Shown here piece after piece: positions 41,959 through 54,301 of a stretch of DNA of 64,000 nucleotides (position 1 is its first letter; the number at the start of each line of letters is the position of its first letter). Made by a program: the position numbers and the translations under genes. This stretch comes from Candidatus Latescibacterota bacterium (lineage in GTDB: Bacteria; Latescibacterota; UBA2968; UBA8231), in NCBI GenBank assembly GCA_965203175.1, contig OZ241867.1:4128001-4192000 (forward strand). The letters run 5' to 3'. The notes under the pieces are model-generated. The model did not search any database, was not told where the DNA came from, and was given only the letters and a program-made list of their open reading frames with translations.

Positions 41959-43545
41959 TTATTCCTCGGTCGTGATGTCCCTCGGCTTTGCTAGGTCTCG
42001 GGCGAGGCTTTCACAGAGGCTGATCGCAGACAGGCAAAACGTAGCTGCGATTGGCACGGACACGATACTCCCCTCTCTGTGCTGTCCGAAGTTACCGACC
42101 GAGTGGAGGTGGTCCACGAGTAAGCACGTTTGCTTCGTTACAAATCTTGAGACGGGGTCGTGGTCCTCTGTCCCTGTGATGAGACGCAGTATGCCGCACT
42201 GCGGCCCGCGTTTCCTAGGGAGCCGATCCCCTTCATCGAACTTTACCCCCACGAACTTCCAGTTATGTGGCATAGACCTGTTTGCTGGGAGTTCGGCTTC
42301 CCAGATTAGATCCAGCGCACGTTCAGCGATGCTTCGGGCCCAGTTTACAGATTGGGTTGGCTCGGGGAGCAGGTCCCGGATTGCCTTCTCAATATCCCCG
42401 AGAAGCCTTGAATCCGCCCCGGTGATCTGAGCGAGACGGAGTTCGAGGAGGCTTTGAATGTTGCTCTCGAAGCGCTCCGCATCGTCGAATAGCCGCCGCA
42501 GGTTCTCCACCTCGCCCGCTTGCTGCTGCGCATACTGGTCCATCAAGCGACATGACGACCGGAGCTTGTTGCCGGACGGACAGGCAAATCCTTGTAGTTC
42601 GAGATCGCGCCTCCGCTGGTCCGGCACTTCGGAGAGTGGCACCTCGCCGTTGGCGAGTTCGGCCAGATTGGACCGAAGTTCGATAGGGCAGTTATCCCAT
42701 AGGGCTGCGAGCAAATCGCGTTTTTCTTTGGCCGTCTCCTTTGCGATCGCGTCCACGTGCGATTTGGAGAGCGATGTGCCTTGGGGTGCTCCGACGAGGA
42801 GCCGCTCTGCCAGACTAGCTGCCAGAATCGGAACGCCGCCGGTCCAATTGGCAATCTCCTTGAGAGCAGAACTATCTAACGTGACGTCATGCAGTTTGAA
42901 GGGATTGAGGAAACCGCTCCAGTCATGGTCCTTGAAGCAACCGACCTCCAACGGGGAGTCGTAGAAAATCTCCCAGAAGTCTGATGTCCGAGACTCCTCG
43001 GTCTTGCAAATCTCCCGGAGTCTTCGTCGGCTTCCAGTCACAAGGCGGAGGCTGGCCTTCTGGCCGAGGTCGCGCATTTCGTCCCAAAGGTTTCTTGTTA
43101 TGCCGCTTCCGGCGAGAACGTGGTCGAACCCGTCGAGTACTGCGAGGAGGCGAAGCCCCTTGTGCTCCATATCGTCGAAGACGAGCTGAAGAAGATCGCG
43201 TAGCCCTTCCTCTTCGAGCTCCAAATACTCGGCAAGCTCAGGCTGCACCGACTGGAGGGTATCTTTGATTCGTTCCGCGAAACGCTGGCGGAACTCTTCA
43301 TCCGTCATGGGAGTGCCATGTCGGAAATCCCAGTACAAGGAGGTAACGTAATGATCTCCTGCGTCCTTAAAGTGAGAAGCAAGGTGGTTCAGGAGCACCG
43401 ACTTTCCGAACAACGGAGGACCTACGACGCACATGTGATCCGGCGTTGGCTTAGTCAGGTGGCGACATAGCTCTACAAAAAGCCGCTCGCGGCCGAGCAT
43501 CGGCGGGATTCCTACACCGAGGACTTGGTAGGGATTGTCGCTCAT
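41959..43545 (-). CDS. STAND/AAA-like ATPase with putative HEPN (DUF4145-like) C-terminal domain
   Basis: NPY...MLGRE, VGPPLFGKS (Walker A), VLDGFD (Walker B-like), WTGGVP; tail ARSIAERAL...HLHSVGNFGQH; ATGA overlap with upstream gene. Confidence 0.75.
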   Translation of the reverse strand: MSDNPYQVLGVGIPPMLGRERLFVELCRHLTKPTPDHMCVVGPPLFGKSVLLNHLASHFKDAGDHYVTSLYWDFRHGTPMTDEEFRQRFAERIKDTLQSVQPELAEYLELEEEGLRDLLQLVFDDMEHKGLRLLAVLDGFDHVLAGSGITRNLWDEMRDLGQKASLRLVTGSRRRLREICKTEESRTSDFWEIFYDSPLEVGCFKDHDWSGFLNPFKLHDVTLDSSALKEIANWTGGVPILAASLAERLLVGAPQGTSLSKSHVDAIAKETAKEKRDLLAALWDNCPIELRSNLAELANGEVPLSEVPDQRRRDLELQGFACPSGNKLRSSCRLMDQYAQQQAGEVENLRRLFDDAERFESNIQSLLELRLAQITGADSRLLGDIEKAIRDLLPEPTQSVNWARSIAERALDLIWEAELPANRSMPHNWKFVGVKFDEGDRLPRKRGPQCGILRLITGTEDHDPVSRFVTKQTCLLVDHLHSVGNFGQHREGSIVSVPIAATFCLSAISLCESLARDLAKPRDITTEE

Positions 43546-52795: not shown

Positions 52796-54301
52796 TTAGC
52801 GATTCACCCTGTACTTGCTTAACCAGTTCGTGAACGTCTGGTAACTCGGAAGGCCCACCAAGTGGGCTGCCTGTGTCTTGTTCCCCTGGGTCTCATCAAG
52901 CGCACGTGTCAGATAGTGCTGTGCAACTGAAGTCAACAAATCCGGAAGGCTGAGGCCATTACCGAGGGGACGGTCGAGAATCTTGGATTCTTCTTGGCCT
53001 ATTGCCGGAAGCAACGCCTCCCGTACGTCTTCGCTGCGTATGGTGGACCCTGAAGTCCAGATTGCAGCCCTATGAAGCGTATTCAGTAGCTCTCGGACAT
53101 TACCTGGCCATGGGTGGGAGATGAGAATATTTCTTGCGCCCGGAGAAAGTTTCTTATGCTCGTAGCCCGGTTCCTGTGCGAGGTCGTCATTGACCTTCTT
53201 GAGTAGTCGATCTATGAGAAGGCTCAAGTCTCCTTTGCGATCTCTCAAAGGGGGTAGCTGTAGACTCGCCACCGCAAGGCGATAGAAGAGATCCTCCCTG
53301 AAGCGGCCCGCAGCGATTTCCTCGGTGAGGGTTCGGTTCGTCGCTGCGATGATTCGGACATCTACCTTGAGTGGGGTTGTCGAGCCGACACGTATGACCT
53401 CTCCCTCCTGAAGGATGCGAAGGAGTTTTACTTGGGCGGGAGGGGAGAGCTCGCCAACTTCGTCAAGGAAGAGTGTTCCACCATCTGCATCCTCAAAGTA
53501 TCCAGTCTTCCTCCTATCTGCGCCCGTGAAGGCACCTTTCTCGTGGCCAAAGAGCTCGGATTCAACGAGTTCAGCCGGTATTGCACCGCAGTTGACCGCC
53601 TTGAAAGGTTGGGCCCGCCGAGGGCTAGCTCTATGGATCGCCCGAGCCAGCAACTCCTTTCCTGTGCCAGACTCGCCTTCTATGAGAACCGACACGGATC
53701 GTGGCGCAACGCGACGTGCCTTGGCGACTAGCCGAGCCATGACTCGGCTGCGGTGGATGATGTCAGCGAACTCTGGTGCCTCTGGAGGTAGCCCAGCGGT
53801 TAGCTGCTCAAGGCGCTCGTCTGGAACTCGGAGTAGGTCGGGTATGAATTCGGCCGAAATGTCGAAGGGCACGGAGGCCGTCTGAACTCCGTACTCCTGG
53901 GAAGACTCGATCAACTTAGCAGGAAAACGCGTCTTGGCTAGAATGATCCAGACAGCCGCCATGGCCGGAGTACCTGGACTCAGATGAAAGATCAGCTCAG
54001 AATCTTTACCGTGATGCTCAAGCGCTTCGGTCACGACCCGAACCGCAGCCTCGTAGATCTGACCGAAGTCGGTAGGACTAGACAATGGCTCGTGACGGAC
54101 GGTCACCGCTGACTCGGTCTGGGGCCGGAGCCAATTAAGGAACGGTGTTACCACTTCCTTAGGGTAGTCACTGACCAGCACGGCAGTATCATAGGAACCC
54201 GTGCCGAGAGCTTGAGCGATCGGCCCTTTCCCTACGCGTTGCTCCTCCTTCGGTGCCTGAAGGTCGGCTTTGCCGATCCAGCTAATCAGGAGTCTATTCA
54301 T
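52796..54301 (-). CDS. Sigma-54-dependent enhancer-binding protein with RtcR/CARF-like N-terminal domain
   Basis: [47 protein letters not shown], Fis-type HTH; N-terminal SWIG..D...SPTDF...[10 protein letters not shown]. Confidence 0.92.

Follow-up and report, generated by a model that had tools for sequence, protein, structure and literature searches.

A stretch of 64,000 nt from a Candidatus Latescibacterota bacterium (contig OZ241867.1, positions 4,128,001 to 4,192,000; called here the window) contains a cassette of six genes, in which a type I restriction-modification (R-M) system lies between a putative sigma-54 activator and two ATPase genes that we name Big and Small. The question raised by this locus is whether the cassette represents a defence system of its own and, if so, what the two ATPases contribute to it. 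The original prediction, drawn from the DNA letters alone, had proposed a new defence system in which Big and Small would guard the R-M genes against anti-restriction proteins. The proposal of a new defence system is supported in silico by the analysis presented here; the guard mechanism is now one of three live options, and it has been weakened by the finding of cassettes without R-M genes. The reading that we favor, to which we give slightly better than an even chance, is that of a mobile, transcriptionally gated defence cassette whose core would be a heteromeric pair of paralogous ORC/STAND-like ATPases, with Big reading nucleic acid and Small providing an output derived from a HEPN domain.

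The Big/Small Pair Is the Invariant Unit of a Recurrent Cassette

The six genes are co-oriented, fill positions 41959-54301 on the minus strand and follow each other in the order activator, hsdR, hsdM, hsdS, Big (1366 aa) and Small (528 aa). The gap between hsdR and hsdM measures 4 nt and that between hsdS and Big 23 nt, and ATGA overlaps join hsdM to hsdS and Big to Small. The six minus-strand genes, their tight spacing, the sigma-54 promoter, a TAG codon in hsdM and a bounding repeat had all been described beforehand, and all of them lie where they had been placed. The two genes at the center of this work are the following:

43542-47642, minus strand: Big, 1366 aa, with Pfam matches to N6_Mtase (residues 144-385), Methylase_S (524-626) and AAA_16 (923-1078)
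41959-43545, minus strand: Small, 528 aa, with matches to P-loop families (Pfam)

Relatives were surveyed in one genome per species with two strict peptide patterns and tblastn with the window proteins, giving 89 confirmed places. The 80 loci that were kept span at least 14 phylum-level groups, as named in the sequence records. Small lies downstream of Big in 79 of the 80, and the contig of the 80th stops 74 nt past Big. Visibly broken copies are few, and include loci L011 and L039. Protein searches returned 1060 relatives of the C-terminal part of Big among 7999 candidates scored and 647 relatives of Small among 8000; few of these relatives are named ('N-6 DNA methylase', 'hypothetical protein'), many are on equally long contigs, and the two sets come largely from shared contigs. 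In viral contigs, none of the 97 pattern matches was confirmed as a relative.

The genes ahead of the pair vary from locus to locus. Both hsdR and hsdM precede Big in 34 of the 60 loci that have at least 9 kb of upstream sequence, and the complete order of activator, hsdR, hsdM, hsdS-sized gene, Big and Small is found in 21 of these 60, three more being cut inside the activator by the edge of the locus. The original prediction had asked for a neighborhood search, and its outcome is that the six-gene order recurs across phyla, with linkage to hsdRMS and to a CARF activator. A short form, in which the activator stands directly before Big and the R-M genes are missing, accounts for 14 of the 80 loci, and about a dozen, the cyanobacterial ones included, have neither activator nor R-M genes. 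Plasmids of Acinetobacter ursingii carry a WYL-domain gene, HsdR, Big and Small, and lack hsdM, hsdS and the activator. Finally, two Spirochaetia loci (L048, 7454-11353; L049, 7340-11239) combine this ATPase module and its Small partner with a head of the DEAD/DEAH helicase type (Pfam DEAD 1e-25, Helicase_C 1e-15) in place of the methylase/TRD head, which shows that the head of Big is modular. Thus, the invariant unit is the Big/Small pair, to which the activator and the R-M genes are frequent, exchangeable additions.

Several of these loci show further particularities. In the A. ursingii plasmid NZ_MH220285.1 (L089, 2741-13563), Big is annotated as 'N-6 DNA methylase' and has AHPPV as motif IV, Small is annotated as 'ATP-binding protein', and the plasmid additionally carries resistance genes. 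An extra gene of about 340 aa without a Pfam family lies between hsdS and Big in L051 (6931-7956), L057, L060, L072 and L079, which belong to the clade whose Big has NPPW. The Big protein of a Novipirellula locus (L073, 10001-13015) is 1889 aa long and contains before Small a second, diverged ATPase module, 25% identical to query residues 267-675.

Among 10 neighboring genes tested, 3 were known or candidate defence genes (SIR2-pAgo, PDC-S01). In four Planctomycetota loci (L061, L063, L066 and L067) a short prokaryotic Argonaute (pAgo) system, SIR2-APAZ/pAgo, directly follows Small on the same strand (PADLOC pAgo, E values of 0 and 1.3e-174). These pAgo and PDC neighbors lend anecdotal support to a defence-island setting.

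Big Joins a Methylase-Like Head to an ATPase

The domains of Big, all on the minus strand, were delimited as follows:

46281..47642: residues 1-454, HsdM-like methylase head (N6_Mtase 8.7e-39; PADLOC MTase_I 3.6e-67 over 28-444)
45753..46280: residues 455-630, single HsdS-type target recognition domain (TRD) (Methylase_S 5.9e-08; profile against EcoKI HsdS 1.2e-20)
44958..45749: residues 632-895, helical spacer that includes two long helices, followed by an all-beta, immunoglobulin (Ig)-like domain at 799-895 (structure model, predicted local confidence (pLDDT) mostly 80-97)
43683..44864: residues 927-1320, ORC/Cdc6/STAND-like P-loop ATPase with lid and winged helix
43545..43667: residues 1326-1366, disordered tail rich in Gly, Tyr, Asp and Arg (pLDDT 30-43; no consensus among relatives)

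The head is a complete HsdM-like unit at residues 28-444, which shares 31% identity with the HsdM of the window. Its motif I, DPCFGTGG, is intact and of the kind that binds S-adenosylmethionine, and a motif of the type YDPCFGxGxL is found in 65 of the 67 family members, the other two being the helicase-headed proteins of L048 and L049. Motif IV reads AVPPWG, without the catalytic Asn and outside the (N/D)PP(Y/F/W) pattern, versus NPPYGG in the HsdM of the window. The head had been called a pseudo-methyltransferase, and these two motifs agree with that name. Across the family, a distant clade has NPPW/F at this position and the clade of the window has A[V/A/H/S/T]PPW.

The fold of the TRD matches Esub1 and the PacII S subunit. 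Over 62 aligned relatives, its identity to the TRD of the window averages 38%; the P-loop domain averages 58% and the helical spacer 26%. Among the seven nearest relatives, the TRD of Big is 54-69% identical, whereas HsdS is 28-46% identical overall in the same loci; judged by these alignments, the TRD of Big is not hypervariable in the manner of HsdS. The possibility that Big shares its specificity with the neighboring HsdS was rejected, the TRDs of both proteins being only 23% identical.

These observations bear directly on the guard, or integrated decoy, explanation, according to which the dead head of Big would mimic the M2S1 core of a type I enzyme, trap DNA mimics of the Ocr/ArdA type and trigger the ATPase pair as a back-up abortive response. 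The loss of the catalytic Asn with motif I retained in 65 of the 67 proteins, and the conservation of the whole HsdM-like fold, are what a decoy would be expected to show. A TRD that evolves with its protein instead of being swapped would fit a constant ligand, and its distance from the TRD of the neighboring HsdS, as well as the frequent physical linkage to a dedicated hsdRMS, point in the same direction. PARIS and PrrC provide precedents for such a back-up response. However, the 14 short forms have no R-M genes in the cassette to guard, and the helicase-headed variants share the same ATPase pair. Moreover, the distant clade keeps NPPW/F, with a canonical HEPN motif in Small alongside NPPW (see below), which makes it probable that the head began as an active enzyme and not as a decoy. 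We consider this explanation unlikely, although it deserves to be kept in mind.

The remainder of Big was modeled over residues 455-1366 (pLDDT 87, alignment of 63 rows). The Ig-like domain announced by the original prediction corresponds in this model to the all-beta segment 799-895; by sequence, the spacer and beta region gave a weak match to DUF11, with an E value of 0.17 only. In the ATPase, the Walker A (GNRRTGKT) and Walker B (LLMLDEFD) motifs are invariant, and the fold matches 2qen (E 2.4e-10, TM score on the target 0.73); searches with the whole model were dominated by this domain. PADLOC returned nothing under an E value of 0.017 for the C-terminal 727 aa of Big. The tail is encoded by a 36-nt direct repeat (83% identical) at 43594-43677 of the window.

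Small Has an All-Helical C-Terminal Domain

The two parts of Small, also on the minus strand, are these:

42496..43545: residues 1-350, a paralogue of Big 905-1305 made up of ATPase, lid and winged helix (K48 of Walker A and D138 of Walker B invariant)
41995..42480: residues 356-517, all-helical C-terminal domain (E418, W429 and H489 invariant)

Small had been described as an ATPase-HEPN-like partner. The structure model (pLDDT 89.8) shows an all-helical C-terminal domain, but the motif found there is GNFGQH and not Rx4-6H, so that the claim has only partial support in the window. In a distant subclade of Small, however, the GNFGQH position is occupied by (F/Y)RNRxxH, which is a canonical HEPN Rx4H motif and occurs in 16 of the 69 loci where the motif is readable. 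A profile of the C-terminal domain was run against 1.84 billion representatives and gave no bridge to a named family: there were 432 hits with E values of 0.001 or less, and the best 150 of the 432 were all Small-like proteins or fragments. No usable match to this part was obtained in the ESM Atlas, NCBIfam has no family for Small, and a PDB sequence search with its profile returned generic P-loop matches only (E 6e-5 and worse).

The Walker B Asp138 of Small is followed by a near-invariant Gly139 (LDGFD; residues 138-141, window positions about 43123-43134), versus LDEFD in Big. By analogy with what has been reported for the inactive STAND partner in BREX, Small may bind a nucleotide without hydrolyzing it efficiently.

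The motifs of the two proteins can be read together in 48 loci. Both the Asn of Big and the Arg of Small are present in 10 of them, the Asn only in 7 and neither in 31, and no locus has the Arg only; hence a canonical Rx4H in Small is always accompanied by a Big protein with NPPW (10 of 10). As the loci are related to one another, these counts describe a nested pattern and carry no statistical weight of their own. Given that the clade of the window has lost both the methylase Asn and the HEPN Arg, the head would read rather than write.

Big and Small Are Paralogous and Predicted to Interact

The original prediction had also pointed to paired STAND NTPases that act as sensor and effector modules. 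In addition to their linkage in 79 of 80 loci, their ATPase modules are paralogous (hhalign probability 99%, E 6.6e-18 over 321 columns), and the ATPase motifs of both proteins are invariant over 59-63 diverse sequences. The fold matches, which include PAB2304, SSO1545, ORC/Cdc6, NLRs, CED-4 and Avs3, show in both the NB-ARC-like core of STAND proteins, i.e., a P-loop NTPase, a helical domain and a winged helix. A model of the complex between Big 899-1324 and Small gave an interface score (ipSAE) of 0.78, the best of three controls reaching 0.00; the runs agree in at least 83% of the contacts, and the partners have pLDDT values of at least 82. A contact between Big and Small is supported, not demonstrated, by this model.

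The Cassette Is Carried by an Island

The cassette was predicted to lie within a repeat-bounded island, and the two copies of the repeat are:

41821..41913, plus strand: left copy of the island-bounding direct repeat, duplicated from the 5' end of a HAD gene and since decayed, at the far end of the inserted cassette
54455..54552, plus strand: right copy of the imperfect direct repeat, at the 5' end of the intact HAD-hydrolase gene (54468-55187)

These copies are 83.7% identical over 98 nt, and the G+C content drops to 0.51-0.59 within the island from 0.60-0.66 in the flanks. Four genomes of the same genus have the empty site, in which the aldo-keto-reductase and HAD genes are just 34-100 nt apart. 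A fifth congener has at the same site an insert of about 9 kb with its own HAD remnant and a different, short version of the cassette, whose Small homologue is 58% identical. Altogether, Small is present in 3 of the 21 related genomes searched, that of the window among the three. These comparisons show that the cassette is mobile and patchily distributed.

The aldo-keto-reductase gene and the left repeat are separated by a stretch with a 168-aa open reading frame that has no Pfam or NCBIfam family (41266-41772, plus strand). This stretch is extra DNA too, because the empty-site relatives have only 34-100 nt there, and it may be the relic of an older insertion. Neither an integrase nor any further mobility gene was found among the island genes (list of open reading frames and Pfam), and a tRNA scan found no tRNA gene in the window and hence no tRNA attachment site. 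A scan of the island for sigma-70 promoters and terminators showed no excess over shuffled sequences.

An RtcR-Like Activator Precedes a Sigma-54 Promoter

The regulatory elements of the cassette are two:

52796..54301, minus strand: RtcR-like enhancer-binding activator, 501 aa, with a CARF-like N-domain, a sigma-54 AAA+ domain and a Fis-type helix-turn-helix (HTH)
52795-52780, minus strand: sigma-54 -24/-12 promoter element, TGGCAC-gcatt-TTGCA, directly after the TAA of the activator and about 50 nt before the ATG of hsdR

The activator matches Sigma54_activat (2.6e-71), AAA_lid_14, HTH_8 and, weakly, RtcR (0.0017) in Pfam, and PADLOC assigns residues 3-499 to RtcR_PspF2--CARF_AAA_HTH (4.3e-202). 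Its score against the NCBIfam RtcR model is 335.8 bits, under the cut-off of 650 and thus below equivalog level. It shares with RtcR, the activator of the RNA-repair operon, the CARF-like N-domain, the sigma-54 AAA+ domain and the HTH; whereas RtcR controls rtcBA, the activator of the window heads hsdR and the rest of the cassette, and no rtcB or rtcA lies downstream.

The promoter position is conserved. Among the 41 loci with a full-length upstream activator, 23 have a strict TGGCAY-N5-TTGCH element 4-162 nt past the end of the activator gene, and 11 more have a relaxed GGYA-N7-TGC at the same position. When both strands of the 2.92 Mb of locus sequence are counted, the strict pattern has 35 matches, of which 23 are at the post-activator position. 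One copy of rpoN is present in the genome of the window.

A gene for an RNA ligase (Pfam RNA_ligase 1.1e-20, with a PHA02142 OB fold) lies downstream of Small on the opposite strand in loci L039, L040, L041, L046 and L050. It recurs near short-form cassettes of Spirochaetia and Bryobacterales, and it is worth noting beside an RtcR-like regulator, although it may be a coincidence.

The R-M Genes Are Conserved in the Cassette but Probably Disabled in the Window

The type I R-M genes of the window are on the minus strand:

50441..52729: hsdR, type I restriction subunit, 762 aa (ResIII 2.3e-37, HSDR_N, Helicase_C, EcoEI_R_C; PADLOC REase_I 1.8e-94)
48901..50436: hsdM, type I methylase interrupted by a TAG codon (Pfam and PADLOC; motifs DPCFGTAG and NPPYGG present)
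47666..48904: hsdS, specificity subunit, 412 aa, with two Methylase_S/TRD stretches (PADLOC Specificity_I 1.5e-89)

HsdR combines a nuclease N-domain with an SF2 helicase motor, and HsdS has the two TRDs of type I systems. HsdM keeps motifs I and IV, but an in-frame TAG at 49111-49113 (codon 442 of about 511) interrupts it, after which 70 further codons run in frame to the ATGA overlap with hsdS. In 37 homologues this position encodes W (30), Q (4) or R (3). The TAG is confirmed only in the contigs of two sequencing runs, which belong to a single study and of which one is possibly the source; of the other read sets, X3 has no cover at this site and X4 covers it with a relative that is about 90% identical. 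The R-M system of the window is probably disabled by this nonsense codon. Co-induction of the pair with the R-M system had been proposed, but in the window there is probably no working R-M system to be co-induced.

Compared by tblastn across phyla, the HsdR and HsdM proteins of the cassette are 62-87% identical to those of the window and HsdS 23-46%; the cassette therefore moves in one piece, while the TRDs of HsdS turn over normally. This unusual conservation also suggests a dedicated partner relationship, and bears on a further explanation, in which Big would form an alternative type I-like enzyme: a dimer of Big (methylase plus half-S, with the long helices paired as in HsdS) would replace M2S1 and recruit the HsdR nuclease, and the ATPases together with Small would act as a licensing switch. 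Big indeed contains every M and half-S part, the A. ursingii plasmids have HsdR, Big and Small without a separate hsdM or hsdS, and in the window hsdR, Big and Small are intact while hsdM is broken. On the other hand, the 14 short forms lack HsdR altogether, and a Big protein without the motif IV Asn could not mark its own DNA, so that another means of sparing the host would be needed. We regard such an enzyme as rather improbable.

The broken hsdM, the degenerate state of both signature motifs in the window and the lack of an integrase or mobility gene inside the island would also be compatible with a cassette that has nothing to do with defence, either a regulated module for epigenetic or nucleic-acid housekeeping or a decaying remnant without current function in this genome. 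Nevertheless, neither Big nor Small is truncated, and the ATPase motifs of both do not vary across diverse sequences; the pair occurs patchily, on an island whose site is empty in congeners; and the R-M genes, the pAgo and PDC neighbors and the CARF and WYL regulators are hallmarks of conflict systems. We find this last explanation the least credible of all.

A Proposed Mechanism and Its Weak Points

If the favored reading of a gated defence cassette is right, the pathway might run as follows. The CARF-like domain would sense a cue of infection or RNA damage which, by analogy with RtcR, could be RNA ends with a 2',3'-cyclic phosphate. The activator would then open the sigma-54 promoter behind its own stop codon, a promoter whose conservation is described above, and the whole operon would be expressed. 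Where hsdRMS is present and intact, it would restrict unmodified DNA as a first layer, which is probably disabled in the window. The methylase/TRD head of Big would bind incoming DNA or a mimic of it and promote an ATP-dependent assembly of Big and Small, whose contact comes from the model. Finally, this assembly would bring together the C-terminal domains of Small and yield the output, which in the relatives with RNxxxH would most likely be RNA cleavage and growth arrest.

A more specific proposal can be put forward only tentatively, since we doubt that it is correct in all its parts. The pair could be an undescribed inducible immune sensor, in which a non-catalytic reader or integrated decoy sits on an NLR-like ATPase and fires through a HEPN-derived partner, the whole being kept silent by the RNA-damage-sensing CARF activator, so that self-protection would be achieved by transcription and not by methylation. 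If this were true, the nested loss of the Asn and then of the Arg would reflect a shift from 'modify and cleave' to 'read and assemble', with a new output chemistry.

Several observations weigh against the favored reading. The surveyed loci are related to one another and cannot be counted as independent events. In the window, three features needed for catalysis or coding seem to be dead (AVPPW in Big, GNFGQH in Small and the TAG in hsdM), and the copy studied here may therefore be partly decayed. The HEPN assignment comes from the motif of a subclade and from an all-helical model: in the window the Arg is absent although H489 is invariant, the C-terminal 196 aa of Small have no meaningful Pfam match, and Pfam HEPN_Swt1 was reached with an E value of 0.11 in 1 of 10 relatives. 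As for the complex, the ipSAE mark was attained by 58 of 80 solved complexes and by 2 of 110 mismatched pairs, counts that hold only roughly here because the alignments for this complex were made separately, and the score may reflect the memory that the model has of lateral contacts of the AAA+/ORC type. Lastly, 7 of the 41 activator-bearing loci have no -24/-12 match, and sigma-54 gating is not universal, because the cyanobacterial loci and the Acinetobacter plasmid have no activator.

Should the cassette prove to be a defence system, it would be widespread: the peptide patterns matched at least 89 species-level genomes from at least 14 phylum-level groups, and there are more than 1000 protein clusters. 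Current defence-finder models see in it only 'type I R-M' and a 'hypothetical ATPase'. Three subjects that are usually studied separately would meet in such a system, namely restriction-modification, switches based on NLR/STAND-like ATPases, and sigma-54 control that responds to RNA damage. The family offers a natural series from enzyme to sensor, with forms in which the methylase is active and the HEPN motif canonical, forms in which the methylase is active and the HEPN motif altered, and forms in which both are altered, in addition to the helicase-headed form. The existence of cultured carriers (Planctopirus hydrillae, Novipirellula, Calothrix and Minicystis rosea) makes the cassette testable.

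Comparison With Known Systems

A match to an already described system would have undone the claim of novelty. The search found none that fits: the Big/Small pair is not covered by any model of PADLOC v2, Pfam or NCBIfam. A description of the pair was not found in the literature either, although the supplementary neighborhood lists of PMC4012209 and PMC11090510 might include it.

The regulatory principle is already in print. Proteins of the RtcR-like CARF/NtrC-AAA+/HTH type were noted in 2014 to be 'often associated with R-M systems' (PMC4012209), and superoperons headed by RtcR homologues, with type I R-M genes before CoCoNuT, have been described (Bell et al., eLife 2024, PMC11090510). According to the hypothesis published there, these superoperons are induced by cyclic-phosphate RNA ends, with possible feedback (PMC11090510), and this hypothesis is equally applicable to the cassette of the window. 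In both cases a co-oriented RtcR-like activator comes first, the restriction genes are in the middle and a HEPN-bearing module is last. However, the McrB GTPase, McrC and the CnuH helicase of CoCoNuT are absent from the cassette (Pfam), whose terminal module is a methylase/TRD-ATPase fusion plus a paralogous ATPase; membership in CoCoNuT was therefore rejected.

The STAND/Avs-type NTPases and the ORC-Cdc6-like 'archaeal ATPase' NTPases (PF01637) were also compared. The C-terminal sensor of TPR, WD40 or LRR repeats by which STAND proteins form a superstructure is absent from the cassette according to Pfam and to models without any repeat array. The putative sensor of the cassette is N-terminal and of restriction-enzyme origin, and its two paralogous NTPases are always paired; its AAA_16 and ATPase_2 matches are below or near the Pfam cut-offs.

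PrrC, which is tied to EcoprrI, couples an ABC-type ATPase to an anticodon nuclease, and PARIS consists of AriA and AriB, an ABC ATPase and a TOPRIM protein. Both resemble the cassette in being ATPase-linked suicide or back-up modules genetically tied to type I R-M. They were rejected, since neither domain type was found in the cassette with Pfam and PADLOC.

BREX combines the PglX methylase with the BrxC ATPase and the inactive, STAND-like BrxB (PMC12839542). It was rejected as well, because no PglZ, BrxL, BrxA or Lon-like domain was found by Pfam among the six genes and the likeness of the ATPases to BrxC is at the fold level only; furthermore, methylase and ATPase are here in one polypeptide. 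The text of the BREX survey contains no RtcR, sigma-54 or HsdM term (PMC12839542).

MADS is, like the cassette, a multi-gene defence operon with a methylase (PMC13662399), and NCBIfam and PADLOC gave weak matches of Big to MAD2 and MAD5 and a marginal one of Small to mad8. These matches remain far below the NCBIfam cut-offs (73.8 vs 720 bits for MAD2 and 39 vs 400 bits for MAD5) and the gene content differs, so MADS was also rejected: its eight genes include kinases and OLD-like nuclease modules that the cassette does not have (PMC13662399). Taken together, the cassette is real and recurrent, apparently has no name yet, and is built from known principles.

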